From contig NC_043005.1 of the NCBI RefSeq assembly GCF_006345805.1, forward strand, positions 22,878,001 to 22,942,000: 64,000 nt of DNA. The letters are read 5' to 3'. This document shows positions 1-51,540 of this stretch, one piece after another. Source of the stretch: Octopus sinensis (lineage: Eukaryota). The position numbers were made by a program, and so were the translations under genes. The notes beneath the pieces were generated by a model that was not told where the DNA came from, made no database searches, and worked only from the letters and a program-made list of their open reading frames with translations. Every line of letters begins with the position of its first letter. Position 1 is the stretch's first letter.

Positions 1-118
1 CCATCATGTTTCATTGTTGATTAAGAGAATAAAGAATTGTATATATGTTTAAACTTGCGTTTCGTTCCTGACTGGTAGTTTCTAGAAACAAAAAATGTCG
101 GGCTAAGAGATCCTTACA
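1..118 (+). mobile_element. 3' end of solo LTR (complete copy at 41566-42120)
   Basis: Identical to 42003-42120; contains AATAAA, ends ...CTTACA and is followed by GATC. Confidence 0.65.
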
Positions 119-239
119 GATCCTTAACCAAATTTTCAAGAAATTATGTCATCTTTAAAAAAAATGAAGAATACATTGGATAATGTATATTATGTCTGGA
201 AAAAAGACAAGAGGATGTGCTTAGAGTGCTTTTAACTAG

Positions 240-461
240 ATTTTGTTATTCTTTTTTTTAATACACACCGTTGGAGCTGCCCATTTTACTTATTCCACTT
301 TTTGGATGACTCCAATTTTCTCTAATCTGTCTAATTGTTCATTGATATGTTTTATTACAGCAAAAGGTTCCATTCTTTTAGGTTTGAACACTGGTACTGT
401 GTTTTCCTTAATTTGGAAATATGTCTCTATCTTAGAACACAAACCTAATTTATCTAACAAC
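240..461 (-). mobile_element. Ty3/Gypsy pol relic, start of RT region (right half of a fragment split by an RTE)
   Basis: Translates LDKLGLCSKIETYFQIKENTVPVFKPKRMEPFAVIKHINEQLDRLEKIGVIQKVE, then (shifted) WAAPTVCIKKKNNKI, the Gypsy pattern PVF.K.R.VP...L.RL...GVI..V...WAAP.V. Confidence 0.8.
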
Positions 462-3219
462 CTCGACCCAAAATATGGTGCAAAGTCCCCTCTTGACCCA
501 AAATATGGTGCAAAGTCCCCTCTCGGCCCAAAATAACGTTGTGGTGGAACAATGCTGTTGACAGGGCTATTAGACAAAAGAAACTGGCTTGGTAGGACTG
601 GAAGAACGGTGGTAGCAGGGAAGTGTATCAGACTGCCAGAAGGGAAGCTAGGAGGCAGGTTTATTTAGCCAGAGGGGAAGCAGATAAGAAAAAATTTGCC
701 AATGTTCTGCACCGTGAGGACCAAAGACTTGAGATATTTCGTGTTGCACGACAGTGTAAGAGAGAATCGTGATGTGGTAGGAGAGAAATGTGTTCGCATG
801 GATGATGGTTCACTTGCGCTAAATGAGGATGCAAAGAGAGAGGTTTGGAGACACCACTATGAAAGGTTGCTGAATAAAGAAAATGAATGGGAGAAAGAGA
901 TTCTGCCAAATGTTGACCTAACAGAGAGACCAGCTATCCGAGTTGACAGTACCTTGGTAGATAAGGCAATTAGAAGTATGAAGACAGGGAAAGCTCCCGG
1001 CCCATCAGGAATTACTGTAGAGATGCTCAAAATATCTGGCAGTGTTGGCTATAGCCTAGTCACCCGTATAGTTAACCAGGGGATACACGAAGGAGTCATA
1101 CCCAATGACTGGTGTAGCAGCATAATAGTCAACTGCTACAAAGGTAAAGGTGACGCTTTAGATACAAATAATTACAGAGGTATTAAGCTGTTGGATCAGG
1201 TAATGAAGGTCACTGAGAGGGTCATAGCCCAACTGATTAGGGAAAGAGTTAGCTTGGTTGAGATGCAGTTTGGTTTCATGCCAGGGAAAAGCACCACTGA
1301 TGCCATATTTCTGGTAAGACAGCTGCAGGAGAAATACCTAGCCAAAGATAAGCCTCTGTACCTGGTTTTCATTGACATGGAGAAAGCCTTTGACAGGGTC
1401 CCCCAATCCCTTATCTGGTGGTCAATGAGATAACTAGGGATAGATGAATAGTTAGTGAGAGCTGTGCAAGCCATGTACAGGGATGCTGTAAGTAAGGTGA
1501 TGGTTGGCAATGAGTACAGTGAAGAATTCAAGGTAGAGGTAGGGGTCCACCAAGGTTCAGTCCTCAGCCCCCCTCATATTTATTATAGTCCTCCAGGCAA
1601 TAATGGAGGAATTCAAGACAGGATGCCCCTGGGAGCTCCTCTATGCTGATGACCTTGCTCTAATTGCTGAGTCACTATCAGAACTAGAGAATTTTCAAGT
1701 GTGGAAACAAGGATTAGAATTGAAGGGCCTTAGAATCAACCTAGCTAAAACCAAAGTCCTAATAAGTAGAAAGGCAGACAAACCATAAATCCCTTCAGGT
1801 AGATGGCCCTGCTCAATCTGTAGTAGAGGCATAGATAGAAACTCTATAAGATGTACCAAGTGCAAGCTTTGGACACATAAGAGATGCAGTAATATCAAAG
1901 GAAGGCTAACTGGGAAGATAGTTTTTGTATGTGGCAGATGCTCGGGAGCAATAAACACTGATAATGTGCAGAGAACAACTTCAGCCACATTCCAGGGAGA
2001 AAAACTAGTAGTTGATAGCTTCCGTTACCTAGATGACCAAGTCAGTAGCGGAGGAGGGTGCGCTGAAAGTGTAGCTGCTAGAACAAGAATAGCCTGGGCA
2101 AAGTTCAGAGAGCTCTTACCTCTGCTGGTGACAAAGGGCCTCTCGCTCAGAGTAAAAGGTAGACTGTATGACGCTTGTGTACAAACAGCCATACTACATG
2201 GCAGTGAAACATGGGCTGTGACTGCTGAGGACATGCGTAAGCTCGCAAGGAATGAAGCCAGTATGATCCGATGGATGTGGAAAATCAGTGTGCATACTCA
2301 ACAGAGTGTAAGTACCTTGAGAGAAAAGTTGGACCTAAGAAGCATCAGATGTAGTGTGCAAGAGAGATGACTGCACTGGTATGGTCATGTGGTGAGAATG
2401 GAGGAGGATAGCTGTGTGAAAAAGTGCCACATCCTAGTGGTTGAGGGAACCTGTGGAAGCGGTAGACCCAGGAAGACCTGGGATGAAGTTTAGGCCTCAC
2501 CAAGGAAATGACTAGTGACCGAGACTTTTGAAAATATGCTGTGCTTGAGAAGACCTGGCAAGCCAAATGGGACCATAACCAGCTCACCTATGCATACCTT
2601 TTCCTTCTTTGGACACTAAACTCTGCTTACGAAGACCTGTTGAGGCAAATGAAATCAAAATCAAATTCAATGACTAGCAAAGTGCAAAGAGCACCATAGG
2701 AGTGTGATCGTTGTCAGAGAGGCTAACCAGCTTCCGTGCCAGTGACACATAAAAGGCACCATTCGAGTGTGATCATCACCAGCGTCGCTTTACAGGCATT
2801 TGTGCCTGTGCTAGTAGGGTGCCAAGAACACCATCCGAGCATGATCGTTGCCACAGAGCACCATCTGAAAGTGATCGTTGCCAGAGTGGCTAACTGGCTT
2901 CCGTGCCGGTGGCATGTAAAAGGGCACCATTCGAGCATGATCATTACCAGCGTCACCTTACTGGCACCTGTGACAGTGGCATGTGTAAAAAGATTTGAGC
3001 GAGGTCATTGCCAGTACAGCCTGACTGGCCCCCGTGCCGGTGGCACATAAAAAGCACCCACTACACTCTCGGAGTGGTTGGCATTAGGAAGGGCATCCAG
3101 CTGTAGAAACTCTGCCAGATCAAGATTGGAGCCTGGTGCAGCCATCCAGTTCGCCAGCCCTCAGTCAAAATCGTCCAACCCATGCTAGCATGGAAAGCGG
3201 ACGTTAAACGATGATGATG
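462..3219 (+). mobile_element. 5'-truncated, decayed RTE-clade LINE (RT, PHD-like insert, C-terminus, 3' UTR, (GAT)n tail)
   Basis: Motifs GKAPGPSG, NYRGIKLL, QFGFMPGKSTTDAIF, FIDMEKAFDRV, VGVHQGSVLSP, LLYADD, SFRYL, LHGSETW spread over several frames with stops; ends AAAGCGGACGTTAAACGATGATGATG. Confidence 0.95.
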
Positions 3220-3500
3220 ACTTAAGGAAAAGCATTTTAAAATTTTTTCTTCAATTCATCTGATACCTTATTCTTACTGGAGGAACAATCATTTATGTAA
3301 TTACAGAACAGATTTATAGAGAAGTCCCATAAATCAAGCAACTCCATTCAGTCAGCACCAAACGAGTTTGTTGCATTTTTTAACACAAACACTTTTGCAT
3401 TATAGGTTTTTTGCCTAAGAAGTGTAATCTTTCACCTGTGATGCCTCGCAAACTTTTCAATGTTTACTATAATGTAAGTTTCCCAATTTTCCGAGTTTGG
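3220..3500 (-). mobile_element. Ty3/Gypsy pol relic, protease-to-RT linker (left half of the split fragment)
   Basis: Reverse strand reads RGITGERLHFLG..KVFVLKNATNSFGAD*MELLDLWDFSINLFC..ELKKKF*NAFP*V, continuing in frame into LLDKLGLC at 461. Confidence 0.7.
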
Positions 3501-3609
3501 CTAGTCCATTCTCACAGGGGTGTCATGATTCTTGCCATAACATCATCATACCCAGAAAAATAAAACTAGGATTTTTCATAATAATAATAATAATTATAAT
3601 AATAATAAT

Positions 3610-3826
3610 AATGGTTTCAAATTTTGCCACAAGAGCAGCAATCTTGTAGGAGGGGATAAGTCAATTACATCAATTCCAGTGTTTCATTGGTACTTAATTT
3701 ATTGACTCCGAAAGGAGGAAAGGCAAAGTCGACCTAGGTGGAATTTGAACAGAGAACATAGTGACAGGCGAAATACCACTAAGCATTTTGTCCAGCATGC
3801 TAATGATTCTGCCAGCTCACTGCTTT
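3610..3826 (-). mobile_element. Abundant ~200-bp SINE family (core GGTCGACTTTGCCTTTCATCCTTTCGGGGTCGATAAA..GTACCA)
   Basis: Same core recurs at about 8180-8380, 16645-16852, 19810-19980, 33160-34340, 35553-35787 and 38350-38590; flanked by (AAT)n; core resembles the Meta-SINE domain (from memory). Confidence 0.75.
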
Positions 3827-4044
3827 AATAATAATAATAATAATAATTCTTTCTACTATAAACACAATGCCTGAAATTTGTAGGAAGGTGCCATTCAACT
3901 ACAGGCAAAATGTCGCTGCGTATTTCATTTGTCTTTATGTTAGTATAACTGTTAATGACTCTGCCAGATTACACTGTATTGTTGCTGTTGAGTGTAGCGG
4001 TCTTCCTCCCAGAGCTCACAAGATCGCACCTCTGTAGTGGGAGA

Positions 4045-4370
4045 AGTCCAAAATGTGGTCCTTTGCTATTTGTAAGACCCGCAGAAGAGAAAGCAGGTCA
4101 ACCCCCAACACCAAGAGCATTGACAGATGGATGAATGCGCATCAAGGCTCAGCGGTTGTGTAGGAAGTCGGGGACAAGAAACAGGGAGAAAGAGTGAGAG
4201 AAAGTTCGGGCGAAAGAATATAACAGGGGCGCCACCACCCCCTGCCGTAGCCTCGTGGAGCTTTAGGTGTTTTCGCTCAACAAACACACATAACGCTCGG
4301 TCTGGGAATTGAAACCGCGATCATCCGACCACAAGTCCGCTGCCCTAACCATTGGGCCATTGCACCTCCA
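4045..4370 (-). mobile_element. tRNA-derived SINE
   Basis: Reverse strand starts TGGAGGTGCAATGGCCCAATGGTTAGGGCAGCGGAC with B-box-like GGTTTCAATTCC; same head as 21279-21569 and 53846-54148. Confidence 0.75.
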
Positions 4371-4470
4371 TGCTGTTGTTGTTGTTGGTGGTTTCTGATT
4401 TTGGCACAAAACCTTAAGTTCGGGGAAGACGGTTAGTTGATATTATTGACCTAAGTAATTGATTGGTGCC

Positions 4471-4720
4471 CATGGGCATATGGCATAGTGGTTAAGAGCA
4501 TGGGATACTAACCTCAAGATTCCAAGTTCAATTCCAGGCAGTGACCTGAATAATAATAATAATAATAATAACAACAACAACAACATCAAAAAAATACCTT
4601 AGGAATGAGAACCCAAGTTTGAAATTTCCCCAAGATACCTGATGAACAAATAAGATGAGGACAAATATCCGTCAAAGGTAAATAATGTACATAATTCCTC
4701 ATCTCTTAAATATAGAATTG
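4471..4720 (+). mobile_element. tRNA-headed repeat with (AAT)n/(AAC)n spacer and a hammerhead-core-bearing tail
   Basis: A-box-like TGGCATAGTGG, B-box-like AGTTCAATTCC, then CTGATGA at 4639-4645 and a tail shared with 37871-37955. Confidence 0.6.
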
Positions 4721-5580
4721 ACTGAAGCTTATTCAATGACCCCTGAGAGATAGAGGCAAAGTTGACTTCAGTGGGAATCGAACTCAGAATGCTACAAGAC
4801 ACTCTAATGAATCAGCCAGCTCATCATCAGTTTTTTCATGCTTGACAAGTATGATGCTTTCATTGAGGCAGATTTTCTAGTTCTGGATGTTTCCCTTGTC
4901 ACTAACTTCCACCTGATTCTAAGCACCTGATTCTTAATATTTTTCCTTGGTTAGACATGTTTTCATGGAAGATTGATGGTGACACTTGTTTACAACTACC
5001 ATGCAATGTCAAGACAAAGAAACACACAAACACACACCTTTTCTCACATCTTTCAGCAATATACAGTAATCTGTTGTTAAGGCTAATGTACAATCCAGTT
5101 TAACATTATTACCAGTTTTTAGGTGCCTTTCAAAGAATTCTTTTTGTTACAAGTGTTCATATCAGATCCATGAATTCCGTCAGCACCTGTCTTTAGAGTG
5201 GCTTTTTTTTTTTTCTAGAAACATTAACCTGCAGTATTCAAAATAACATCAGTCACATTTGTTTTGACATCCTGAAAGTGTAGTTTGCAGAGGTCAAGCC
5301 CACTGCAGCTTCTCATTTCTTCTTCTTCCCCATTGTCATCATCGTCACCATCATCACTATCATAGATCAGACAGAATTCACTGAGACAGCTTTTCTACAA
5401 TTTCATGTCCTTCCTGTCACCAAGTCCCACTTGTTTCCAAGCAAGATAATATTTTCCCATGCCCAGATATGTTTTTCATGGAATGTTAACTTTTACTGGT
5501 ACAATAGTGATACTCGTTTACAACTCTCGCACAATGTTGAGACAAGGAGGCACAAACACATACACATTTATACATACATA

Positions 5581-6405
5581 TGAGGTGGGATCAAAAAGTT
5601 CCCAGGTTAGTTATGGCTAATAATCATCTCCTTCAAAACAGCCACCTTACACTGGTCTCAGTGTTCCTGCCAATTTTGGAATCCAGCCTGGAAGTCGTTT
5701 TCTGTAAGCTAGTCGAGGACCTTCTGTGATTTGCTCTGGATCTCAACAACAGTATTAAAACAGTAACCTTTGAGCTACATTTTCATCTTGGAGAAGAGAT
5801 GGAAGTCCACAGGTGCTAAATCTGGCAAATAAGGTGGGTGCAAAAGCAATACCAAGGTGTTTCAGGCAAAGAACTCATGAGTGAGAAGGGCTCAGTAACA
5901 GGGTGCATTATCATCATGTAGAATCCAATTCTTCGCTCTCCACAGATCTGGTCACTTTCACTGAATGTCTTCTCTCAAACACTTCAAAACCTCTCAGTAG
6001 AACTCTCAATGTGATGGTCTAGCCCTGGGGAACAAATTCCCGATGCACAATACTACAGGTGTTGAAAAAAACGTCCAGGGACATTCTTCTGCTTTTGAAG
6101 TGCCTATACCACTTGAAACATTGTGTATGACCCATTGACAAAGTATGTTCGATGTTTCAGTAGCAGAGTTCCCAAGTTTAATGCAAAATTTCATGTTGGC
6201 TCTTTGTTCCAACTTCCTGTCCAAGACAAAAATTGAAGACTACAGCATACGTATGATAACAGAAACTTGCAAAGTAAACACAGCGATGTCACTTGGCACA
6301 TTGCCTCATGAAGGTCACTACTAACTCTCACTATGCACACAACCATGCACTGCCATCTGTTGGTGCAATACAGATCTAATCCAGGAACTTTTTGATACCA
6401 CCTCA
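5581..6405 (-). mobile_element. Internally deleted mariner with both TIRs
   Basis: TA|TGAGGTGGGATCAAAAAGTTCC ... GGAACTTTTTGATACCACCTCA|TA; residual peptides EQRANMKFCIKLGNSATET, WILHDDNAP, HPPYLPDLAPVDFHLF. Confidence 0.9.
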
Positions 6406-6628
6406 TATATATAAAGATGTGTGTGAGACAGGCTTCTTTCAGCAAATGCTAATTCCATTCACAAGGCTTTCATCAAGAGTTATTGTAGAAGATACTTGCC
6501 TAAATTGTCACACAAAAGAACTGAACCTGGAACCACATGATTGAGAAACAAACTTCTTAACCACACTGCCAGGTTTGCACAGCCACTACCTTACAAAAAT
6601 AAACACTAACAGTTAAATTGCAGAATAT

Positions 6629-6743
<115 letters not shown>

Positions 6744-7064
6744 CTCTTTTCTCTCTTTCATCTTTCTCTCTCATTCATATATTGACAAAAAAAGTAACCA
6801 AACAAATTTTATATATTAGAAAAAGGAATTATTTTATTTGATTTTATTTTCCTTAAATATAAAAAATGTTGTTTTAATTTTTAATAGCATTATATGAATA
6901 TGATTAATATAAAATGTAACATGGAAATATCCTTGGTATGAAAGCAGTTTTACTTTAGTTTGTTTGATTTTTTCCCCCATTTAAGTATGTTTTTTCTTTA
7001 TCTTTTTTTCAAATCTCCTTTTCATCAGCCTACCCCATCCAATACACGAATATCAGATACAACA

Positions 7065-7202
7065 TCATATAGAGTAACTCCCAAAGAATCCTTTCATTTG
7101 TGTGTCAGCATCTAACAATGGATTTCTTTCTTCCATTTGCAATTTGGTCAGACCATATTCCTTGATATCTTCAAATATTTTAATGAAAAACAGTAAGAGG
7201 CC
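7065..7202 (-). CDS. SLC18B1: SLC18B1-like MFS transporter, last coding exon (copy 1)
   Basis: Acceptor ttttaag| then GLLLFFIKIFEDIKEYGLTKLQMEERNPLLDADTQMKGFFGSYSI*; phase 0 matches the previous exon; acidic dileucine motif EERNPLL. Confidence 0.8.
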   Translation of the reverse strand, partial: GLLLFFIKIFEDIKEYGLTKLQMEERNPLLDADTQMKGFFGSYSI

Positions 7203-8495
7203 CTTAAAAGAGAAATAAAGAGGGTAACATCAATATCACCATCCTAAGCATTATAATCATGTTAATCATCATCATCATTGTCATCTCCATCATCATTATC
7301 ATCTTCATCATCCATTCTTTCCACTAATCCAATAAGCCATTAGAAAATATAAAGATCTCAAAATCAAACTGCTTAACATTTTATAGTTGGGTAATTTCTC
7401 ACACATTCACATGCACACACAAGTAGTGCACGTATAGAAACAATTACATACACATATCAAAAAAATATAGGCTTTGAAATAACTTCTATCATTTTTATAA
7501 AAGCTCAAGTTTGTAAAAGACACTATATTCAAGTGAACATCACATTTTTTAACTCATTTATTTTATCATCTTCAAAGTAACCAATGGGTTTGGAACTCAG
7601 AATTTCAAAGGGCACAACTAGTTTCCTCCTCTAACTGCCTTCCCTTGATAAGGATTTTTAACTAACATCAATACACGGTCAATATTTAGGGTGGTAGACC
7701 TAATCTCTTATCCAATTAAATGCTACCATAAGCAGCCCTTTCTTTTCCTCATCAGTTCCTGCAAAAAAAAAAATACAGGAGTTGCTCTTCCTTCTTTCAC
7801 TGAGCCATTGAAAAAGAGTCAATTAGATTGACTCCAGTATATCACTAATACATATATTACTATCCTTAGGAGAGGAATGTAGTAGTTAACTTCACCCTAA
7901 GAGATGAAGCTAACCACTGCAGTTCATAAAAGGACATAATTAAGTACTGTAAGATATTTAACATAGCATTCTACAGTTTGTGCCATTCATTGTGCCCACT
8001 AATAAATAGTGGTTTCTATCATAGCCTCACAGCTACAAAATTTGGGAGACAGTTGATTGCATCAATCCTAGTGTCCCTGGAAGGATGAAAACAAAGTCAA
8101 CTTCAACAGGATTTGAACTCAGAATGTAACAAAGTATTTTGTAATTTTGTATGATTCACTAATAATTTTATGATAATAATTCTTTTCGCCAGAGATTTTA
8201 AGGGAGGGACCAAGTCAATTACATCGACCCCAGTGTTCAACTGGTACATATTTTATCAACCATGAAAGGGTGAAAGGCAAAGTCAACCTTGACAGCATCT
8301 GAACTCAAAACAAAGCCAGAAAAAATGTTAGTGAGCATTTTTCCCAGTGTGTTAATGATTCTGCCAGCTTGCTGCCTTAATAATAATAATAATAATAATA
8401 ATAATGGCTGTGATGATGACGATAACAACAATGACATCCAGTTTGTGCACTACAGGCCAACAGACCAGATATTGTTGTAAAAAAAATCAAATTAT

Positions 8496-9150
8496 CTAGG
8501 GATAACTGAGGAAACCCATGGCCCAAAATCTTGCTGAACACCTAAGGCAAGTGACCTCTCCAATTCTTTTTCTCTGACACAGGTCTACACTTAGAGTGGT
8601 ACCATCTACTCTTACCATTTTTGCAACTTTCATCCACCTTTCAATGAATTCACTCGAGGACAGAACCTTCCTCTTCACCCTCAAGTTTCACTTGCAAAAG
8701 TCAATGAGAACTCTACCAAAGATGAATGTTTCTGTACTCATGCCTTTCAATCTTGTCCACTATACAACCTCTTTTGCCACAGTCACCAGGCAAAGGAAAA
8801 CTAGTCAAGCAGTAACTGGGTCAGGTGAAAAATGATAATGGAGGCAATGTAGACATTTACTACTTCTGCCTGATTTTTCAAGGACAGCTTCCTTTGTCCA
8901 TTTCTTGGTAAGACTGGCAACAGTGTTAGTCACCTCGTCCAAGTTCATATCCACCTTGAGATTAAAAACCAAACCAGACACTCGAGCAGTTTAACTGATC
9001 CATCAGTCGACAATGCCATCCGATGGCATTGACCTACCTCTCCAGGTGCCCAATTGCCAGCCCAACAACTTGTTGGTGTTGATTTTGGTCCCTGCTACTG
9101 ACTCATATTCCTTTAGAATGGAGCTGACCATCTCCAATTCTGTTAGACTA
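8496..9150 (-). mobile_element. Tx1/L1-like LINE ORF2 fragments (late RT and C-terminal end, internally deleted)
   Basis: Reverse strand ELEMVSSILKEYESVAGTKINTNK (late RT pattern) and RVKRKVLSSSEFIERW near the end. Confidence 0.55.
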
Positions 9151-9497
9151 CCACAATCATCATCATTATTGTCAGCACCATCATCATTGCCACTACCACT
9201 ACCATCATCATCATCATTTAATGTCCATGTTCTATACCGATGTAAGTTGGACAGTTTAACAGGACCTGATGGTCCTAAGGACTACATCATGCTCCAGTGT
9301 CTGCTTTGGCATGGTTTCCACAACTGGATGTCCTTCCTAATGCCAACCCTTTCACACCATATACTGGGTATTTTTACGTGTCACCTGCACTAGTTGGGCT
9401 GCTATGCAGTTGGCAAGAAGACAAACCCTGATGAGGCAACTTTATTCTAGGAGATGAGGGGTAAAAGTATGAGAGAAGGGCCAGAGCAGAACAAGTT

Positions 9498-9540
<43 letters not shown>

Positions 9541-9544
9541 TATG

Positions 9545-10517
9545 TGTGTGTAGATATCAAATTGTTGGATGAGGTAATGAAAGTTATGTTGGAGGTTATA
9601 GCCCAATTAATGAAGGAGAGAGTTAGTATAGATGAGATGCAGTTGGGTTTTGTGCCAGGGAGAAGCACCACTGATACTATATTTCTGGTAAGGTAGCCAA
9701 AGATAAACCTCTGTACTTGGCTTATCTGGTGATCAATGCAGAAACTAGGGACAGACAAGTGGTTGGTGAGAGCTGTACAAACCATGTGCAGGGATTCTAT
9801 CAGTAAGGTGAGGGTTGGCAATGAGTACAGTGAAGAATTCAGGGTACATGTAGGCGTCCATCAAGGATCAGTCCTCAGACACCTCTTGTTTGTCATAGTC
9901 CTCCAAGCAATAACAGACATATTTAAGACAGACTGCACCTGGGAGCTCCTCTATGCTGATGACCTTGTTCTTATAACTGAATCACTATCAGAACTAGGGA
10001 AGAAGTTTCAGGTATGGAAGCAAGGTCTAGAATTGAAGGACTTTAGAGTTAACCTAGCAAAAATCAAAGTTGTGGTAAGTAGGAAGGCAGACAAATCACA
10101 AATCCCTTCAGGTAGATGGCCTTGCTCGATCTGTAGAAAAGGTGTAGGTAGAAACTCTATAAGATGTACCCGGTGTAAGCTATGGACACACATGAGGTGC
10201 AGCAATAGCAGACGAAGGTTAACAGGGAAAATAGTTATTGTGTGTGGAAGATGCACAGGTACTATAAACGTCAAAATGTACAGAAAATAGACTCCATCAA
10301 CTGCCAGTGGGGTAAGCTGTAGGTAGTAGATAGCTTCTGTTATCTAGGTAACCAAGTTAGTAGTGGACATGGATGCTCCAAGAGTGTATCTGTGACAATA
10401 GGATTAGGCTGAGTAAAGTTCAGAGAGCTCCTACCTCTGCTGGCAACAAAGGGCCTCTCCCTCAGAATGAAAGGCAGATTGTATGATTCCTGTGTGTGAA
10501 CAGATATGCTCTATGGC
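9545..10517 (+). mobile_element. Second decayed RTE LINE fragment (RT plus PHD-like insert) in the last intron
   Basis: IKLLDEVMKV, QLGFVPGRSTTDTIF, VGVHQGSVL, LLYADD, WPCSICRKG..; same family as 462-3219. Confidence 0.92.
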
Positions 10518-10590
10518 ACATCCAACAGGTTATAGTAAAAAGAAAAACAAATGAGAAATTAAATGCCTGTATTATTAAACCAATACTCAC

Positions 10591-10684
10591 AGCAGAAAAA
10601 CACCCGATGGCCATGTAAGTTGTACACCACTGGAAGCCAACACTGTCCATAAGAAATCCACTTAAAGATGGTCCAACGAATTCA
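10591..10684 (-). CDS. SLC18B1: SLC18B1-like exon (copy 1)
   Basis: tctttcag| (G)EFVGPSLSGFLMDSVGFQWCTTYMAIGCFSA |gtgagt; 94 nt, phase-compatible on both sides. Confidence 0.88.
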
Positions 10685-11716
10685 CTGAAAGAACAAAATT
10701 ACTAATAGGTGAGAATTATGTATGCAGGTCAATTGAAAATGAATCTCTTCCATATAATCATGTAAACCAATATTACTAGCTTTATTGTGAAGCAGTCAGC
10801 AAGTAAACCAACAACAGCCAAAGAGTCTCACTTAGGTATGTGAATGGCAGAGGGAGAATATTAGCTCGATGGCTAATATTATTTAACCTATTTTGACAAG
10901 TATGGAGACAACTTCTGACATATTTCAATCTTATTAAACCTCTTCAGGAAAGTATAGTCCTCAGTGAACTTGCAAAAGTAGTAGTGAGGGATCAACATCA
11001 TCATCATCATCATTCCCTTTTCTATGCTTGCATCAGTCAGATGAAATTTGTTGAAGCAGAGTTTCTACAGTTAGATGCCCTTCCTGTCACCAACTCTCAC
11101 CTGTTTCCAAGCAAAATCATATTTCCCCTTTGCCAGACACATGTGTCATGCAAGACCAGAAATGAACAGCACCAGTCATATGACAGTGATGCAGGTTAAT
11201 AATCAGCACATGATATCAAGACAAGATTACACACATACACACACACTGCATATATGTATACACAGCTGATTTTTTTCTGATGTGTGCTCCAATATCTGCT
11301 TTGGCATGGTTTCTATGGCTGAATGCCCATCCTAACACTAACCACTTTACAGCATACACTGGGTGCTTTTTTGTGCCACCAGCATTAATGAGGTTGCCAT
11401 GCAGTTCACAGGGCTAGGGGACAAGGGAGTTAATATGAGAGTGGGGTAGAGCAGGATCCTGCAGAGGGATCTTCTTTTTCTACCTTCAGTGTTTCTGTTC
11501 AGGGTTTACGCTGGTTGTATATTTACTACAATGATACTGATCAAACCACAATTTACTGATACTTAATTTTTTTTTATACCATATCACATCAGATTCTTCT
11601 TGTATGGAAAAACATATCATAGCAGTGAAATCAATGTCAATATATATATAAACTATACTTAAATATAGAATAACATAACAGATCAATATGGTAAATGAAT
11701 CAATCCAACAACCTAC

Positions 11717-11791
11717 CCGAATGCATACATTGATCCCCAAATACCAGATACTAATCCATATGTACTGGAACATTTTTGTAGTCCTGCTTCT
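11717..11791 (-). CDS. SLC18B1: SLC18B1-like exon (copy 1)
   Basis: ttgttatag| (I)EAGLQKCSSTYGLVSGIWGSMYAF(G) |gtaggt; 75 nt; matches the family pattern STxGLVSGx. Confidence 0.88.
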
Positions 11792-12389
11792 CTATAACAA
11801 AGGAAAGAAATATTATGACATCATTAATGTATTATTAGGATAGGATTATTCAAAGAATATGTGAACATAGCTACAACATAATGAGTCCCATAATCTAATT
11901 GAGTGTTGGGGCCCTTTTGAAGATTTCATTATCATATAAATATATCTAGGATAAGTCAGCTTTGTTAACATGAGCCCTTCTCCAAAGAAGTTAAACTCAG
12001 CACAACAAAATAATAAAAGAACAGTAAATCTTGATGCTGTTGTTGCTGATAGTATACAATAGTATAATATGCCTTACAGTTTACAGTTTGGTGTACTGAA
12101 CCAAATAGAATGAATGAAAGGACAAGAAAAATTCTTTGCACCTGGTTGTCTCATGCCATATTGACTCATCTACTGAAATAAAATTTTTTAAATGGAGTGT
12201 AGCCAACATCTGGCAATAATAACTGTTAATTCTTCTATAATACATGCCTTCCTTTATATATTTAGTTAAATTTTTGCATGAATATAAAAACTTTGCAAAT
12301 GAGAGGTGCTAATTGTCTTACCAATGATAATTAATATTATATATGAAATTAACTTGCTATAAACTCTGATTTAAAATTACTACCGTTAA

Positions 12390-12570
12390 CCCTTCAAGGT
12401 CATATCAGACCCAAATATTCTACCTGTTTTATGTTCAAACTGACCAGATCAGGCTTCTCACTCCTACCCTGCAATGTCATTCTAAAAGCTACAAGATGAT
12501 GTATGATAAACTCAAAACAGCATGAATAAATAAGGATTACATTTGACAAAGTAACCTGAATGCTAAAGGG
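12390..12570. mobile_element. TTAA-flanked piggyBac-type MITE
   Basis: TTAA|CCCTT...AAAGGG|TTAA; related to 27572-27790; duplicate at 55268-55448. Confidence 0.7.
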
Positions 12571-12720
12571 TTAAACTTCTTATGTAGCTCATTATTGCCA
12601 GTATTCTTTCCAAACCACTTAGGCAAATCAAATTTGTAAAATAAAAATATCTCCTACCCAAGGTATTTAGGGATAAAAACCAAAGGAATCTATGGACAGA
12701 AATGAATGATAACTACTTAC

Positions 12721-12816
12721 ATTGCAAGTTCTAGAAGCATGTCATATGTTGGTAGAACTGTGAGACTTACAAATATACCAAGTAATGCAAGGCATATGAT
12801 ATTTAACCACAAAAGA
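12721..12816 (-). CDS. SLC18B1: SLC18B1-like exon (copy 1)
   Basis: tcttttcag| (D)LLWLNIICLALLGIFVSLTVLPTYDMLLELA(I) |gtaagt; 96 nt, phase 2 to phase 2. Confidence 0.88.
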
Positions 12817-13149
12817 CTGAAAAGAAAGAAAGAATAAGACACATTAGAAATAATATGAATTAACTGTCGACAGTTTAATGTAAATTGATATTAGATATTA
12901 TATGGCCTTGTGCCAAAATTTGAAACCGATATTAGATATTATAAAAGGTGGCAGAAATGTTAGCACGTCGGGCGAAATGCTTAGCAGTATTTTGTCTGTC
13001 TTTTTGCCTCAATGAACTGTCTGACACATGCAAGTATAAAAAAGTGGACACTAAAATATATGCATACATATAGAGATAATATACATACATGTGTGTGTGT
13101 GTATGTGTTTATACATTCTTTTAACTTTTAGTTTGTTTTAGACTGGCCA

Positions 13150-13740
13150 CCTTCCTGAAAAAGGAAATTGTCATCATCTCGTGTAAGTGCATATCCTTTG
13201 AATTATAAGAATGTTTTACAAATTTTGAAGGCTCTGGATATCACAGACATTTGTAGCTGATGAATTAAGGAGCTATGTTGTTTCTTCAGAAATCCAAGGC
13301 CAAGTTATACTTTGTCCAGTCAGGCTGGTATGTAATCTGTAGCTCCAACAATAACAAGTATGGAGATAAATGTGCATCTTGCATATTGGATCGGAAAACT
13401 TCTCATCAATGGTCTTTAAGTATCTTCCCCCTTTTGCATTTTCTTACCAAACTGACATCAAGTGGGCAACTGTTTTCTATGACAAAGCATGCTTATAATG
13501 AGTGTTCACAAACAATAATATCAGGCTGGTTGCAGTTTTTATTTTTAGGTTCTACCAGTTTTCCTTTGAGCTGTCTGTCTCAACACATTCCTTCCCATTT
13601 TGATTTTATTTTTGTCTTCTGCAAGGGCATTCCATTTTGTTCTAGCTAACACATAATGTCTCACAGGGAAGTAGTAATGAGACAACATTCTTTCACAGTT
13701 GGCAATAATGTGGCTAACATGCTCAATTTTATTTTGCACA
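13150..13740 (-). mobile_element. Fragment of a LINE with a restriction-like endonuclease (R4/Dong/NeSL-like), C-terminal part
   Basis: EHVSHIIANCERMLSHYYFPVRHYVLA resembles the ExxxHIxxxC...RH motif after the CCHC knuckle; heavily decayed; duplicate at about 56030-56620. Confidence 0.55.
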
Positions 13741-13759
13741 AATGATATTTTTTGTCAAC

Positions 13760-14939
13760 TGATAACCTTCCTTTTGCCATCTTTGTAGGAACTTCATTAT
13801 TCCACATTCATAGAACTTCAGGTCCTTATCAGCCAAAAACTGAAGCAAGTGCAAATTCAGTTCATCATCATTGTTGAAAGTTTTAACATTCAAAGGATTT
13901 TGCAAATTTCGAAATAAATGGTAATCTGTTGGTGCATGGTCAGTGCTATATGGTGAATGTGACATCACTTCCCAGCCAAGCTCCAATAATTTTTCACAAG
14001 TTAGCAAAGATGTGCATGGCCTAGCGTTGTCATGGTGGAACTTAATATCTTTAAGATTTGACAATTCTGGCCATTTTTCTTTGACTGCTTCCTCCTGTTT
14101 CATTAGTTGTTGACAGTAAACATCTGTATTGATCGTATGGTTCTTTGGAAGCAACTCCAAATACAAACACCTTTGTAATCCCACCAAATTGACAGCATGA
14201 CCTTTTTTTGATGCAATTCAACCTTTGATATGGTTTGTGCTAGTTTATTACACTTGGACCATGATTGTTTTCGATTGATGTTATTGTAGACAATCCATTT
14301 TTCATCATCAGTGATGATTTGGTTCAAAATAAGGTCAATTTCATTGCATTTGGGATGCATATCACAAATATTGATTCATTGTGTTAAGTGAATCTCTTTC
14401 AATTTCTGTGGAACCCAAATATTGTGCTTCTTAACAAGTCCAAGACATTTTAAGTGATTTTCAGTTGTTATGATATATTTACCCTCTCTACAATCTCTGG
14501 CACAGTTATGACATTTAGATTCAATAATGGCTTTGATTCGGTCATCATCAATTTCAGTAGGTCGGCCAGAACGTTGGTCATCTTTGAGTGAAAATTCTCC
14601 TGAACATAATTCTAAAAACCATTTCTGTGATGTGCATTCTGTTAAGCAATCAATACCATAAACTTTACATATCTCTTTGTGAGCCTCAGCAGCTTTCTTG
14701 CCTGTATGGAAATAAAAAAGCAAAATATGGCAAAAATTTTCGTTTTTGCACTCCATGTTAAAATTGACACTGAACTAACAGCTGTAAACAAAATTATGTG
14801 CAATTTGCTTCTAAACTAAACTAAAAGTAAAAGCTGTCAAATGTCAAAAGGGAAAAAATCATGACATTAACAAAAGTTATTCAAAACAATCAAAACTTTA
14901 TCTGTTTACAAAAACAAAATTACTTTCTTGCCAACCCAG
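13760..14939 (-). mobile_element. Mariner (DD34D) transposase pseudogene with 5' TIR
   Basis: TA|CTGGGTTGGCAAGAAAGTAATT TIR at the high end; WVPQKL, IITDDEKW, FHHDNARP, SPYSTDHAPTDYHLF; frameshifted; no 3' TIR seen. Confidence 0.93.
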
Positions 14940-16107
14940 TATGTGATGTAACACTATGTATGTATGTCTCTCCTGTTTTTCATCATTTAAATTTCTCCTC
15001 TGAAGAAGGATCTAGTTTCTAACAATGATACAAAATTCCATCTTTGGAATGTATATAACAAAATAATGTCACGTTTTAAGTCTGATAAAGGTCTTTCATA
15101 GTTTTATTGTTCCACTTACAGATTGTATTTGTAATGTATGAATCGCTTGGTTGATTGCTTTCACTAATACCATTACCATAATTAAAGAGGTTTCTCAATT
15201 ATTAAAATTTGCCATTAGCCATGTAATTTGCAGAAACCACCAAATTAAAATTCATGTTAGATAATTTAATACAGGGCTTTGTTTGAACCTGTTACACCTT
15301 TCCCCTGGATATATTTATGAATATAAAATATGCATATAAGCACACACACACACACACACACACATACACACACACACACACACACATGTGCTTTGAGACA
15401 TCTGTAAATAACTGAATTGTAGTAATATATCCTTTTGTAATACATATACCTCTCACTTTGTGTGAGTGTTTGTGAAGTCATCTGAGTATGTATATATGTG
15501 TATAGTCTTCATTATCATTACCATCATCATTGTTTAACGTCTGCCTTCCATACTGGCATGGGTGGGATTGTTTGACAGGAGCCAGCCAAGCAGAAGCCTG
15601 CACTAGACTTCTGTGATTGTTTTGGCAGGATTTTTACAGCTGGGTGCCCTTCCTAACACCAACCACCCAGCAGAGTGAACTTAGTGCTTTTTTGCATGGC
15701 ACAAGCACAGGTAAGGTCAGTTTTGGCAAGGTTTTTACAGCTGGATTCCCTTCCATATGCCAACCACTTTACAGTGTGAACTGGATGCTTTTTAAGTGGC
15801 ACCTGCATTGGAAGAGATGATCTTGTATCAGATGATGAAAGGCTATAATGAGACAGAAACATGTGTCTTGCTGTAGAGGAGATACACGGTTACAGAGAGA
15901 GGGAGGGAGAGAGTGAGAGAGAGAGAACAAAAATGAGGACAGAAACAGGTGTGTTGCTGCGAAGGAGATACATGGTTACCTGAGCTGAGGGAAGTGCAGG
16001 AGGAGAGAGAGTGGGAGACATCAGGACAGAGATGATGGCAAAGTGCCAGGCATACTCACATATATTCTAATATTGAACAGTGAGAATAAGTGCTCAACAC
16101 TGTATTT

Positions 16108-16330
16108 CATCATCATCATCGTTTAACATATGTTTTCCATACTGGCATGAGTTGGACGGTTTGATAGAGCTGGCCAGCCAGGGAGCTGTCCAGACTCCAA
16201 CTGTCTACTGTGGCATGGCTTCTACAGCTTGATGTCCTTCCTAATGCCAACCACTTTACAGAAAATGCTGGGTGCTTTTTACATGCCACCAGCTTGGGGC
16301 ATTTATACAGCACTGGCACAAGTGCATTTT
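16108..16330 (-). mobile_element. Short element sharing the RTE 3' tail (one of many)
   Basis: Begins (CAT)n CGTTTAAC, the reverse of the RTE end; relatives at about 9200-9390, 15520-15800 and 39840-40115. Confidence 0.65.
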
Positions 16331-17256
16331 TTGTGACACTGGCACTTGCAAGGACAAGCCTGTATGTATGGATGACAGCAATTTTACTTAGCTGATATAT
16401 CTTTTCAAGTACAGAAAATCATCACAACTACTAGTCCCTTGTCATTTCCTCAATGAGGCCCAGTGTCCGAAGATCCTTTCTCACCACTTTGTCCCACATC
16501 CACCTGAATTCTTATTCCATTCAAATTTTGACCTGCTATAATCACTAATTATATTTTTTCACTTCATTATATATTCTACAATGTTTTTGTTCACATACAC
16601 ACATGCATACATCCATATTGCCAACATACACATTCACATATATATATTCCTTTCTACTCTAGAGACAAATTTTGGGGAGGGGGAGGCAATCGATTAGGTC
16701 AACCCCAGTATGCAACTGGTACTTAATTCATCGACCCAAAGGATGAAAGGCAAAGTCAACCTCAGTGGAATTTGAGCTGAGAACGTAAAGACTGACAAAA
16801 TACCGCTAAGCATTTCATCCAGCGTGCTAACATTTCTGCCAGCTCACCACCTTATTCACATATATATTGAAACATACAAATACATACACATAGATAAAAA
16901 AAAACAGGTTCAACACATCTTTGCTCATGCCGTTATGATACACAATAGTTCATTGATGATGTTATGACAGTTAAGATATAAACATTATCGAGAAAAAGAA
17001 TACTAGATAAAACTAGTGAATAGGTGAGAACGTTGTAGATTAATTGTTAAGGAGAGAGCAGCTAGACACATTAATTCATCAAGCATATACCTATCAATAA
17101 TACTACAGATTAACAAAATATATCATATTAGACTCCACCCAACGCCATCCAAAATTGCTACGTCAATCAATATTAACTCAAATACACGGTCTATACATAT
17201 CAAGTAAACACAAACAGAACTCACATAATGCCTGATTTTACCAGCAGAAAATCTAG

Positions 17257-17289
<33 letters not shown>

Positions 17290-17294
<5 letters not shown>

Positions 17295-17499
17295 TCAAAA
17301 TGTGACCTCGTGTGTACCGTTGGCGATTTCTTTCCTCTGTCTTCCCTTCTCGGGATCTTTCCTTCTCCTATGTTTCCGACGAAGAGCTCCGCTCGAAACT
17401 TTAAACCCTCCTTCTTCCCTTCTTTCCTGAGTGTCCATAATACTATATTTGCTCCACGTCCTCGCGTTGTTGTGTTTTTTTTTGTTTTCTTGTTTGGAT

Positions 17500-17548
<49 letters not shown>

Positions 17549-17847
17549 AATACACACACGTATATATATATAGTGAGAATTTACAAAAAAACAAAAGACA
17601 AAGACAAGTGTGTAAACAACAAACAGATGTATTAGTTTAATGCTTGGAAAGTGAAAAAGTCTTTTACATTTCGAACCTATGCCATTCAACAGAAAGGAAC
17701 ACAGAAATAAACAGGGAGAGAAAATAGAAAAACTTTTAGTGGCTAGCAATCTATCATGGTGAATGCTGGATAGAGGGGCCACAGAGGAGAGCTAGGAAGA
17801 AAGGGAGATAATAAAGTAGTGGTGATCCCAAAATGAAGGTGCGCATG
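17290..17847. mobile_element. Two convergent short elements in (TA)n, each with a minimal hammerhead-like motif (Penelope-like ends)
   Basis: + strand gttt-CCGACGA-a-gagc-tcc-gctc-GAAA-cttt-aaac at 17372-17406; - strand cttt-CTGTTGA-..-GAAA-tgta-aaag at 17696-17661. Confidence 0.5.
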
Positions 17848-19205
17848 CAGTATTTCACTTATCCTCGTGGGATTTCCTGTGAGGGAGCCATCTTTTTGGA
17901 AGAGAGGTCCTATTCTCTGGCACACTGTGGCTGTCTCTTTGGCAAACTTATAGAAAGCTTTAGGGTTTGACTTGATATTTTCTATTACCCAAGCTTCTTT
18001 ATCTGCTCTCTCCTTTTCATGAGACTGATGCAGACTTTTCTCAATTTCCATTAGCATTCTCTTGAGACAAGACTTCTCACCACTTTTGGTGTGCTTGCTC
18101 AGGCGGTTCGCAATCCTTGTCCGTCGTCTCATAAGAATCTTCTTTTCTCTAGGGATCCTGTTTTTGTGTGTGCTGGCCTTCCACACTGGGACATATTTGT
18201 CACATATGGCTTGTATTATGGACATGAAACGTTTGTGTTTCATGTCAATGTCTGGTGTGGAGAGACATTTAGGCCAATCCTGTTTGAGGATCTCTTTCTC
18301 AATCAACTTCCAATTTGCTTTATGAAAGTTTAATTTGGGGAGATTGTGCATGCTTCGTATAGGCTGTGTATCTGCGGGGGCTTTTGGTCCATACATAGAC
18401 AGCTCTATTATGTTGTGATCCAAGATCATTGTCGGTATCACTTTAACATTATGGATAATATCCATATTGTTTGTGAAACAGAGATGCAGTATATTATTTG
18501 CCCTGGTTGGTTGCAGAACTGTTTGCTCCATGAAAGAAGCATTTGTAAGATGGATCGGGGACTCTGCCTGTGCTTGCTGATGGTGTGTCATCCCCGGGAG
18601 CATCTGCACCCCCCAGGCCATTCCACATTGGGAAGTTAAAGTCACCCATGAAGAATACACTGTTGTGTTGTTCCAGTTTGGTGAGAACTTCTATTTTTGT
18701 TAGGAGCAGTCTTCAACCATGCCTGTGTGATTTGGGGCATCCGGTGGGCGATATGTAGTACATATGACGATATTCAGTTGTCTTATGTGTACAATTTGAG
18801 TGTCAACACACTGAGTTTGAATATGACAACAGGACCTGGGGCATGAGGTCATCTCGGATATACACTGCAACTCCACCATGACTCCTCCCTTTTCTATCTG
18901 AGCATATGACAACATATTGCGGTATGTTTATTTCTGCATCCCCTATATCAGGTCCAAGATGCATTTCTATGAGTGCCATGCATATAGCTTGATTGCATGT
19001 TGTAAGGTCTGTCAGGAATGAAATTTTCTTTTTACAGTTGTCGCGCAGCAGCTCTCCTACGTTCAGAAGAATATTTTTGTGGCGTGTGTGTTGGTGTTTG
19101 TGGTGGCCATCCTGCATCTGTTGGTGGTGGCCTTATGTGGTGGTAGTTCCAGCTTTGTGTTTGTAGCCAAGTCAGCTGCTGGACAATTTTTTGTGCCATG
19201 CACAA
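17848..19205 (-). mobile_element. CR1-type LINE ORF2 N-terminal half (APE endonuclease plus linker), truncated before the RT
   Basis: SDRKGRSHGGVAVYI, TTYRPP, MGDFNFPNVEW, QPTRANNIL, LDHNII, NFHKANW, IKSNPKAFYKF, IGPL. Confidence 0.9.
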
Positions 19206-19257
19206 AAAGAATATATATATATATATACACACACACACATATATATACATATATATA

Positions 19258-19700
19258 AATAAGAGAGATAGAGATCAACAGAATCAAGAACACATGCGTC
19301 AAGAGCAAAGGCAGCCATACTTAGAAAATATGAGAAACAGAGTTCAAGAAAGAAGGAAAAATATGGAAGATGAAACACAGAATTATCTTATGATAGACAG
19401 AGCTCAAATAAGAAGATGGAATATAATGGAACAACAAAATTCTCAATTTATTATTGGTAAGATGACATAATATGCCCGCACTGTCATGCATTTAGATTTC
19501 TGCAGGAAGCATTTAATTGCTGCCATAATGGTAGGTAGATTAGGCAAGGTTTCCTTACCTAATCTACAAAAATATCCTGACCAGTTAAAACAACTTTTGG
19601 AGAATATTGACATTGAAGGAATGAACTTTAGACAGAACATCAGAAACTATAACTAAATGTATTCATTTGCCTCATTTGGAACCAATGTTTCACCACCAAT
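19258..19700 (+). mobile_element. Helitron Rep-helicase N-terminal fragment
   Basis: IGKMNIICPHCHAFRFLQEAFNCCHNG..KVSLP..FRQNIRNYN..SFASFG (cleaner in the duplicate at 62135-62578), the Helitron CxxC..CC..GKV.LP / F..NIR.YN..F.S motif. Confidence 0.85.
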
Positions 19701-21278
19701 AGATAGATAGATACAAATATATATATACATTTGTGTGTTGTGGGGTGCATGTGCACCCATGTGCACACACGTAAGATTGATCGTTTGACTGACTGTAGAA
19801 GTAAAGTGATATCAATAATATTAACCCTACATTATTGCTACATAGTTTATCAACCCTAGAAACATGAAAGGCTACGTCGACCTTGGCTAGATATGAACTC
19901 AGGATGCAAAATAATATATCTAGATATAGCAAAATATTTTTATCTTGACTCCTCCCTTTTTGCTGCCCACCAGCTTAATTATTTTAAACAATTTCTTTTA
20001 TTAATAATATTGAATTCTAATATTATTAATAACAAAGAAAATAATTTATATAGCATTATAATATCACTAAATGAAATCACTAAATCTAATTAAAATAAAT
20101 TATTCATTATTTATACAAATGAAAGAATGCAAACATTTTGTTTGGCTTTGTTTAATGACGAAATAGCTAACTAATTAAAAAACTTCTAGTATATTACTTA
20201 CACTTCACTGATTTCATTTTCTATTCTATTCTGCATTCTGCACATTTTTAAATGATTTTAAATAGAAAAAATCCTGTATTATTTCAGTTATTCAATAGAA
20301 TCTTCTTTTTTTTCCTGGACATTTTTACAGCTAGTTATTATGTTTTGTTTTTTTCTCTATGCTTCTGTTTTAATATTTTCTATTTTGGACTTTCATTGTT
20401 ATAATTTATATATATATTTTATACCAAATATTCAGATATGACAAAAGAATTTACAGCTATTTCACAGCTTAACAGAATTTGTCTTATGTGAGGCCTGAAC
20501 AATCAAGTAAAGCCTCTACATAGCTATTCATTCTGTTCAATGTAGTAACCAAATTGACCCTCAACAAACTGCTTTCAGACTTGAAAATGGATATTGTATT
20601 GTTATATTGTTCTTTAACTGCAGGCAAACTCAGCTGAGCAAACATAATCAAAAACATTCAAAGCATGACCATCTTTCTATTTATTCTGGATTCATACGTA
20701 TCCTTCTCTTTTTAAGATAATAGGTTCCCTTTTTAAATTAGAGGAATTTTTTACATGCTATTTTTAGCAGGACATGCCACAATATATAAACTACCTTTTT
20801 CACATTCAACAACTGTTTAATGGTTTTGCATGGTGTATTCTATAATGCAAAAGAGCAAGATTTTCACATTCATTCATTCAGTATTCAAATTGCAGATCAC
20901 ATTATACACAAAGTGACATTGTGCATTTATAAAAAACCATAAATTCTTCATTTCAAACATCTTTGGATTACCTCCATTGCAAGAATATTACATCAACAGT
21001 TCGGAAACTCTTTTTAACCCAGAATGTTTAATCAATTCACATTGTATGTTCATAGCAGTTGGTTTTGAGTTCAATGCCACTGCATGACACCTTAAGCAAG
21101 CATCTTTTTGTGGGTAGAATCTGGGGAGAGGGAAACTATGCAGGAACCTGTCACACACGTATGCATGTGTGTTTATGGTTGCATGTATAAAACTATCATG
21201 TGTCAAAAGTTATTCACAAAGTATAGTTTGATAAATAACTAGCAGACTGAGATAAATACTGGGCCATTGTGATCAATA

Positions 21279-34571: not shown

Positions 34572-34671
34572 NNNNNNNNNNNNNNNNNNNNNNNNNNNNN
34601 NNNNNNNNNNNNNNNNNNNNNNNNNNNNNNNNNNNNNNNNNNNNNNNNNNNNNNNNNNNNNNNNNNNNNNN
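34572..34671. other. Assembly gap (100 N)
   Basis: Seen directly; exactly 100 N is a typical placeholder for unknown gap size. Confidence 0.99.
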
Positions 34672-37765: not shown

Positions 37766-37955
37766 TTACATTATTTACATTATTTTCATTATTTATATTT
37801 GACGGATATTTCTCCTCATTTTGTCCTGATGAAGGCCTGAGGGTATATCAGCTGAAATGTTGTGTTAACCACAAACAAGATGAGGACAAAAATCTGTCAA
37901 ATGCAAATAATGTAAATAATGTACATAACTGCTCATCTCTTAAATATAGAACTGT
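37766..37955 (+). mobile_element. Hammerhead-like tail fragment with inverted 5' copy
   Basis: CTGATGA 37826-37832, ctga/tcag stem, GAAA 37854-37857; 37766-37824 is the reverse complement of the downstream tail. Confidence 0.6.
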
Positions 37956-38879
37956 ATTAGATAAATAATATAAACAACCAAATTAAAACACAACTTACCT
38001 GGTGTTGTATATGATAATAAAATAGAAACATGCTATTGTGGAAATCATTTCCTGACATGTGTTAATGTGCTAAAAATAAAAGACCTGCACACCAAATACA
38101 CTTTCGGCATTATAACTGTTATCATTGGAGCAATGATCTGCTTGGATTAACCTGGGTTCTTGATTAAAGAATATAGCTCCATAATTCATACCCCACAGAA
38201 GATATGTCCCCTTGGTCATGTCAAAAACGATAAAAATCTTCTGGACCTTAAAATTTAAAGCATAAATGATTGTGCAAAAAACAAAACAAACATATTGTAT
38301 GCATATCTTTCCTTAACAACCTTGCCACTGAACAGATGGCCAGTCAAATAATCTACCAAACTCCAGTTAGGAAAAGAAAACAACACCTTATTAGCCGGTA
38401 GAATTACAAGAGATTTAGGAAAATACTTTATATTTTCTGGCTCTTGACATTCTGATTTCAAATCCTTCCAATATCAACTTTGCTTTTCATCTTTTCAAGG
38501 CTGAAAGAATAAAGAACCAATCAAGACAATGGAATCAGCTAACCCACTCCTTTCAAAAATTTTTAACCCTCTCCCTAAATCAGAAACCATTATTATCCTT
38601 ATGTTGTTGTTTTGTTTTATACAATCTGTTCCTGAGTTTCACCAGAGACCTCAAGTAATAGCAAAGTTGGACATTTTACTGTGGGTTTTAATCATGAAAA
38701 GCAATGACATATTCCAAGGAAAGGAGACCAAATATTCGGAATTAAAATTCCATTAAGAGTTTGTGGTAATATTTGTGATTTTACAAGATTCATGTATTCT
38801 CAAAGTGTTGACATTCGGATATGGGCTGTACCCATCATCATTATCATTTTTTAACATCCATTTCCCATTCTGCCTTGGG

Positions 38880-42120: not shown

Positions 42121-42463
42121 GATCCTTAACCAAATTTTCAAGAAATTATGTCATCTTTAAAAAAAATGAAGAATACATTGGATAATGTATATTATGTCTG
42201 GAAAAAAGACAAGAGGATGTGCTTAGAGTGCTTTTAACTAGATTTTGTTATTCTTTTTTTTAATACACACCGTTGGAGCTGCCCATTTTACTTATTCCAC
42301 TTTTTGGATGACTCCAATTTTCTCTAATCTGTCTAATTGTTCATTGATATGTTTTATTACAGCAAAAGGTTCCATTCTTTTAGGTTTGAACACTGGTACT
42401 GTGTTTTCCTTAATTTGGAAATATGTCTCTATCTTAGAACACAAACCTAATTTATCTAACAAC

Positions 42464-48630: not shown

Positions 48631-48718
<88 letters not shown>

Positions 48719-51491: not shown

Positions 51492-51536
<45 letters not shown>

Positions 51537-51540
51537 TATG

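Follow-up and report, generated by a model that had tools for sequence, protein, structure and literature searches.

The window analysed here is the whole 64,000-nt stretch of Octopus sinensis DNA. On its plus strand, positions 4467–4720 carry a decayed solo repeat, to be identified below as the terminal repeat (pLTR) of a Penelope/Poseidon-type element. This copy spans unit position −6 to the tail end, and 237 of its 250 aligned bases agree with the family majority. The initial annotation described a tRNA-like head with A and B boxes, an AAT/AAC spacer, a CTGATGA motif and a tail. All of them were found in the sequence where it had placed them, and the start of the unit had to be moved from 4471 to 4467. 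The first bases (4467–4473) form the upstream half of a short palindrome where the head begins, with the predicted Pol III start at G 4468, 13 nt 5′ of the A box. The 75-nt tRNA-like head follows at 4474–4548. Its A-box-like element (4481–4491) begins at tRNA position 8, its B-box-like element lies at 4525–4535, and its cloverleaf has decayed. The (AAT)7(AAC)5 spacer occupies 4549–4584, and its length varies between copies. From the ATG at 4605–4607 to 4720 there is a remnant of the first codons of an open reading frame (ORF), whose N-terminal peptide motif is also present in the intact relative P0002. Inside it, 4634–4645 holds the 5′ strand of helix I and half of a hammerhead core (CUGAUGA), which is what is left of a minimal type I hammerhead. 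Past 4644 the copy has lost helix II, GAAA, the palindromic helix III and the cleavage site. This 38-nt deletion, which reaches from after the CUGAUG core to past helix I, also breaks the reading frame, and the copy therefore cannot be a ribozyme. The last part (4689–4720) is the ‘tail’ known from Penelope-like elements (PLEs), an extension of about 33 nt between two alternative 3′ ends. A candidate target-site duplication pairs 4457–4465 with 4716–4724; it is a weak one, with 8 of 9 bases matching and a score of 6, below the counting threshold. Pieces of other tRNA-type SINE families flank the repeat on the minus strand (4290–4370 and 4728–4797); heads of other SINEs in the loci resemble the head of this family by only 60–70%.

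The tail recurs at 37871–37954 (81% identity, E 1e-18), as the initial annotation had noticed. This second insertion is a head-to-head pair. The main arm (37825–37956, plus strand) is 5′-truncated at the hammerhead core, has CpG-decayed helices II and III and keeps the tail; the inverted arm (37771–37824, minus strand) has no tail and is fused head-to-head to the main arm. Helix II of the family has a stem of 5 bp after one bulged A, instead of the 4-bp ctga/tcag read from the decayed copy at 37826. We agree that neither copy is intact, since the first has the 38-nt deletion and the second (37771–37956) lacks the 5′ strand of helix I. A third copy at 46467–46720 (plus strand) is 100% identical to 4467–4720. 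It is not an independent copy, because positions 1–11416 are duplicated at 42003–53421 (99.4%) and it lies inside this large segmental or assembly duplication. The tandem duplication is about 42 kb long and also relates 11642–21129 to 54525–64000 (98.6%), with an N gap at 34572–34671 between the two duplicate copies; it is either a recent segmental duplication or an uncollapsed haplotype. LINE-ORF-like fragments were seen by eye at 669–2370 and 9733–10290 (plus strand, with reverse transcriptase (RT) motifs) and at 17743–18690 (minus strand, with an endonuclease-like stretch).

A genome search with 4460–4730 had 5,188 candidates, of which 40 were scored; these yielded 72 matches. Copies of the family are scattered over the whole genome, far above chance. 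Exact matches number 5,870 for an 18-mer of the head, 1,166 for an 18-mer of the ORF end and 761 for the intact 46-nt hammerhead, and the reversed controls of the head 18-mer and of the hammerhead gave 0. Alignment of 29 loci defined a unit of about 290 nt, consisting of the tRNA-like head, the AAT/AAC tract, a body, a minimal hammerhead and two alternative 3′ ends. The proposed linkage of head and hammerhead tail was confirmed: the AAT/AAC tract follows 194 of the 202 head matches that reach the 3′ end of the head, in loci mostly fetched with this family. ARAGORN found no tRNA in the window, and Rfam called neither a tRNA nor a hammerhead at the window copies; the Rfam hammerhead search also gave no match for the unit. 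Contigs of two other organism labels cover 30 of 30 bins of the element. The family looks old, judged from the absence of an intact ORF among the 69 family loci translated and from copies that are about 90% alike.

The family consensus keeps CUGANGA and GAAA with paired helices. Its hammerhead is of the minimal type I, with a short helix I, a bulged base between 9 and 10.1, a G10.1–C11.1 pair, a palindromic 15.2–16.2 and no loop 3, and GUU as the cleavage triplet in the sequence. The same features are given for the minimal type I hammerheads of metazoan PLEs in the available text of PMC4209133, and comparison by sequence found no structural difference from them, in line with the PLE-type assignment suggested at the outset. 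Among 94 copies not picked by motif, 15 keep the core, the palindrome and the helices. Covariation in helices I and II, an earlier suggestion, did not appear within the family. Only 3 double-sided changes were counted over 10 pairs × 94 copies, as would be expected for neutral decay from one master. Related families, found with a pairing descriptor, have the same fold with different helices (24 sense versus 11 antisense loci of 80). The active fold was not recovered in the minimum free energy fold of the dimer. RNA-seq gave no read-end peak at the cleavage site on two loci (L013 and L204), and deletions, taken as a possible footprint of cleavage in vivo, had no peak at the cut site and were spread over the unit. 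An in-frame loss of 3 nt, which takes out the cleavage triplet, has spread in both ORF-linked and short copies. This spread matches what is described for PAc of the lizard Anolis carolinensis, whose hammerhead mutants still insert in vitro and whose ribozyme is dispensable (PMC11167929). For the octopus hammerhead, cutting is predicted only in the dimer, and copying probably does not depend on the ribozyme.

The initial annotation took the unit for a separate non-autonomous family that borrows a Penelope RT. Our results showed instead that it is the pLTR of a coding element, lying about 30 nt after the ORF stop and encoding the first ~50 codons of the ORF. In several copies the sequence upstream of the head encodes the conserved C-terminus of an endonuclease, and when loci were picked by this C-terminus, 29 of 30 ran directly into the unit. 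The element is ordered as ORF stop, spacer, head, AAT/AAC tract, ATG, hammerhead and tail. In tandem copies the reading frame goes from the ATG of the unit through the hammerhead into an ORF with RT and GIY-YIG domains. Among 40 loci, a pLTR formed by a partial tandem copy was seen in L204 (a partial pLTR, a broken 2.3-kb ORF and a full unit), in L173 and in the group L176/L182/L208/L209. A script-built majority of 64 segments contains an 835-aa ORF from the ATG of the unit, which is 56% identical to P0002; the hammerhead-encoded peptide is common to the N-terminus of P0002 and the family ORF. An RVT_1 match was found in a fragment from locus L162, the protein has 239 homologs, mostly with RVT_1, PF26215 or PF28514, and profile alignment with Pfam-confirmed Neptune-like ORFs extended over RT and endonuclease (E 4e-60). 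The endonuclease of P0001 stayed below the Pfam GIY-YIG threshold, and the PDB search gave weak matches to the RT only. In the profile alignment, the family has a gap opposite the CxxC linker of Neptune and so has no Zn-finger-like linker between RT and endonuclease. Such an extra linker is given as a feature of Neptune and Nematis in the available text of PMC8557442, and its absence points to the Penelope/Poseidon clade. Taken together, we consider it probable that 4467–4720 represents the terminal repeat of a Penelope/Poseidon-type element that codes for protein, in a solo copy that is now dead, with the tRNA-like head likely serving as the Pol III promoter of this element. The kind of element, the hammerhead and the insertion style are known; the tRNA-like head, likely a promoter, is unusual.

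Neptune-like PLEs were also considered as the partner and rejected, as 30 GIY-YIG loci and 20 longer stretches matched the unit only by microsatellite and one stray tail fragment. High-copy Neptune-like PLEs with ORFs of 775–781 aa exist in the same genome, and the unit is absent from them. Five of the loci (L061, L062, L064, L065 and L079) represent young Neptune-like families with open frames of 762–781 codons. A minimal hammerhead with a canonical core lies at the 3′ end of Neptune-like PLEs in L066 and L075, and L061 has, by eye, what is apparently a U3–A8 core variant. Another short head-to-head palindromic repeat, belonging to a different family, stands beside a PLE end in L073 (oriented positions 4778–4870).

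The insertions also have the hallmarks of Penelope that had been suspected. An inverted 5′ arm was found in 46 of 90 hammerhead-anchored arms. The tail belongs to the main arm in 40 cases, to the inverted arm in 17 and to both arms in 3. An inverted, 5′-truncated arm and an optional tail of 30–40 nt at one end are described as PLE hallmarks in the available texts of PMC8557442 and PMC8969392. Repeats resembling target-site duplications scored at least 8 in 5 of 45 solo copies, versus 0.2–0.6% of mismatched pairs. The alignment stopped short of the unit in 20 of 35 RT-anchored copies. Among the RT-anchored copies of L141–L210, internal deletions of at least 3 nt were found more often in the unit than at the ORF end (3–17% versus 0–12% per bin) and evenly spread; this excess may reflect instability of inverted arms.

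Copies without ORF sequence are in the majority (55 of 70 head-anchored copies) and look like SINEs; as in tRNA-SINEs, A and B boxes mark the 5′ end, and copies begin there. They could in principle form an independent, self-cleaving tRNA-SINE or retrozyme family that has its own masters and is mobilised in trans by the RT of a Penelope element, and transcription and copying in trans would be open to solo repeats whose boxes are intact. We compared 112 unlinked with 41 ORF-linked units. Most common among the shared indels are lengths of 3 or 9 nt, which keep the frame, and only 1 position differs between the two classes at p<0.01. One 9-nt repeat-unit loss, carried by 11 of the 112 unlinked units and by none of the 41 linked ones, speaks for an independent family; no diagnostic short-copy subfamily emerged among the 153 units. 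The identity of the whole unit with the pLTR of the coding element also argues against independence. So does the arrangement of the copies, which are solo or head-to-head, with head-to-tail tandems rare and without tandem arrays, and the retrozyme label was dropped for this reason. Circular RNA had been proposed as a further sign. Go-back joints in RNA reads on L204 arise from a repeat that occurs twice in the reference, and no circle-type joint was among the RNA-run joints listed for the solo unit. An independent family is in our view improbable, and no separate SINE lineage was found by these sequence comparisons; the unit is a pLTR that encodes the N-terminus of its element.

The head was compared with 9 sampled tRNA sequences of the same genome, giving 38–46 identities and z values of 3.1–7.5 against shuffles. 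Its anticodon arm resembles Lys(TTT), yet the overall scores were alike for all of them and none of the 9 was singled out as the parent. To locate the 5′ ends of the copies, 70 head-anchored loci were used, and 65 copies remained after 5 repeats of one insertion were dropped. Fifteen of these run into the ORF, 35 start between −7 and +5, and 15 start between +6 and +31; no 5′ end fell between −8 and the ORF-linked class. Thus 35 of the 50 copies at risk stop within 13 nt, where 4% (from the upstream truncation rate) or 12% (from the head-internal rate) would be expected (p<1e-20). The ends were set by x-drop extension, in which upstream matches of 1–3 nt can be chance. The wall stands at −6/−7, which is 13–14 nt before the A box, the same spacing at which Pol III SINEs such as Alu start. 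The share of ORF-linked copies differs by sample (1 of 45 hammerhead-anchored versus 15 of 70 head-anchored), and frequent internal deletions in ORF-linked units may explain part of this gap.

A wall of this kind could also come from processing. RNase P might cut the tRNA-like head from a longer Pol II transcript and free the short unit. When arms were aligned to the head alone, 16 of the 45 hammerhead-anchored arms reaching it began at its first G, as such a cut would predict. With upstream sequence allowed, however, 27 of 55 unlinked copies start at −7 to −1, upstream of the RNase P cut, and the acceptor and T stems of the head do not pair in the sequence. We regard RNase P processing as very improbable. 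Another explanation makes the head a passive passenger in the 3′ UTR of an element with a Pol II internal promoter, and the 5′-end pile-up either a Pol II start or a fold-back or pause of RT at the palindrome. The palindrome is exactly at the head start, and the internal promoter of the Penelope of D. virilis is TATA-less and LINE-like in the available text of PMC2377424. Fold-backs at the palindrome account for only 8 of the 35 copies that start at −7 to +5. In the other 27, the start joins either unrelated flank or a distant internal site, which is what run-off at the end of an RNA would leave. Together with the spacing to the A box, these joins argue against a passive head. We infer that the head marks the 5′ end of the RNA, which is best read as a Pol III start. 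In 80 related metagenome PLE loci, no A and B boxes were found between the ORF end and the hammerhead (1 unrelated regex hit), and for this reason the head looks lineage-specific.

Pol III stops at TTTT, and the coding strand of the family majority has 0 TTTT runs in 2,566 nt. Base shuffles gave a mean of 4.9 runs (P0 0.011) and synonymous shuffles 3.1–3.6 (P0 0.017–0.036). Under an order-2 Markov null, which was fitted to the same T-run-poor sequence, the mean was 1.5 and the absence was not significant (P0 0.22), as a passive head would allow. In contrast, 12 of 12 control PLE ORFs have such runs (3–27 each, above their own shuffle mean), which goes against a passive head. Real copies of the family carry 0.15 T4 per kb. 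The absence of TTTT is suggestive, not decisive, as a sign of whole-element Pol III transcription.

RNA-seq was also inspected. In two unstranded runs, 7,992 of 12.9 M and 6,412 of 12.0 M reads on L013 came from the family (about 500–600 per million), with no start or end peak on this locus. On L204 there was no depth step at the head, and depth fell along the ORF. The lack of strand information, of a start peak and of a step leaves room for a passive head. At L013:1380–1720, a strong excess of A>G and T>C was observed in the RNA reads of runs X23 and X24; at place 1522, for example, it concerned 560 of 2,476 reads, versus 0.3% of contig depth in a DNA-like run of another organism label. Such a pattern is characteristic of A-to-I editing in head-to-head copies. 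The excess suggests that much of the signal comes from edited hairpins, by read-through of inverted arms in host transcripts, and it is only a hint because the runs come from different organism labels. We also considered that a short tail intron might move the start to a later ATG, and rejected this: the listed joints included none of this kind, and P0002 agrees with in-frame read-through. RNA-seq neither supports nor refutes the use of Pol III, and on the evidence from starts, spacing and T runs we consider a passive head unlikely.

Tentatively, then, and as a possibility we would hold at somewhat less than even weight, the octopus element may be an autonomous coding element whose whole 2.7-kb RNA, including the ORF of ~835 codons, is made by Pol III from a captured tRNA-type promoter in the pLTR, with all TTTT purged, and which sheds SINE-like copies of its own 5′ tip. 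Pol III would start about 5 nt before the head and, without TTTT to stop at, could run through the ORF to the next repeat. RT would then start at one of two tail sites, by analogy with PAc, for which starts at two internal sites bounding the tail are described in vitro (PMC11167929). A start in the first repeat, or on RNA of a solo repeat, would run off at the RNA 5′ end after ~290 nt and give SINE-like short copies; a start in the second repeat would give ORF-bearing copies, variably truncated. Since a start in the first pLTR of a tandem RNA would yield a unit from the tail to the start site, no SINE master would be needed. Translation of an uncapped Pol III RNA has no explanation in this Pol III model, which counts against it.

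The element resembles PAc in its single ORF with RT and C-terminal GIY-YIG domains and in its pLTR formed by partial tandems, and it shares with PAc and other Penelope/Poseidon PLEs the hammerhead over the ORF start, the two 3′ ends with a tail of 30–40 nt and the inverted 5′ arms (available texts of PMC11167929 and PMC8557442). It differs from PAc in the A/B-box head between the ORF stop and the ATG, in the sharp 5′-end wall and in the absence of TTTT from the coding strand. Like the schistosome SM-alpha repeat, it combines a Pol III-type promoter, putative in the octopus unit, with a downstream hammerhead in a single short repeat; SM-alpha, however, is described as non-coding and often tandem (PMC6765202), whereas the octopus unit is the terminal repeat of a coding element and occurs solo or head-to-head. 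The TRIMp3 elements Cassandra, Helenus and Ajax have a small-RNA-derived Pol III promoter in the terminal repeat, as the octopus element probably does. They are described as non-autonomous LTR elements (PMC10886601), while the octopus promoter-like head sits in a coding PLE of the non-LTR type. Metazoan non-LTR retrozymes also are short hammerhead sequences from PLE pLTRs, but they are defined as tandem repeats with a hammerhead per unit (bioRxiv 10.64898/2026.07.22.740005), an arrangement the octopus copies do not have, and the words ‘tRNA’, ‘pol III’ and ‘promoter’ are absent from the main text of that preprint. In the literature searched, a tRNA-type promoter in a coding PLE is not described; Repbase, Dfam, subscription journals and supplements lay outside the search and may hold the family. 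Named octopus SINEs include OK, OR1, OR2 and Twhin.

If true, this would be a coding retrotransposon run by the polymerase of short non-coding RNAs, which the autonomous LTR partners of TRIMp3 are argued to be unable to use, needing Pol II instead (PMC10886601). One would then have to ask how cells translate an RNA that has no cap and contains an internal ribozyme. The element would also show a SINE and its autonomous partner directly as one and the same, with a simple origin for SINE-like repeats, in which RT starts at the first copy of its binding site in a tandem PLE RNA. In practical terms, Penelope ends account for thousands of the repeats that look like tRNA-SINEs in this genome, and these repeats are probably misannotated.
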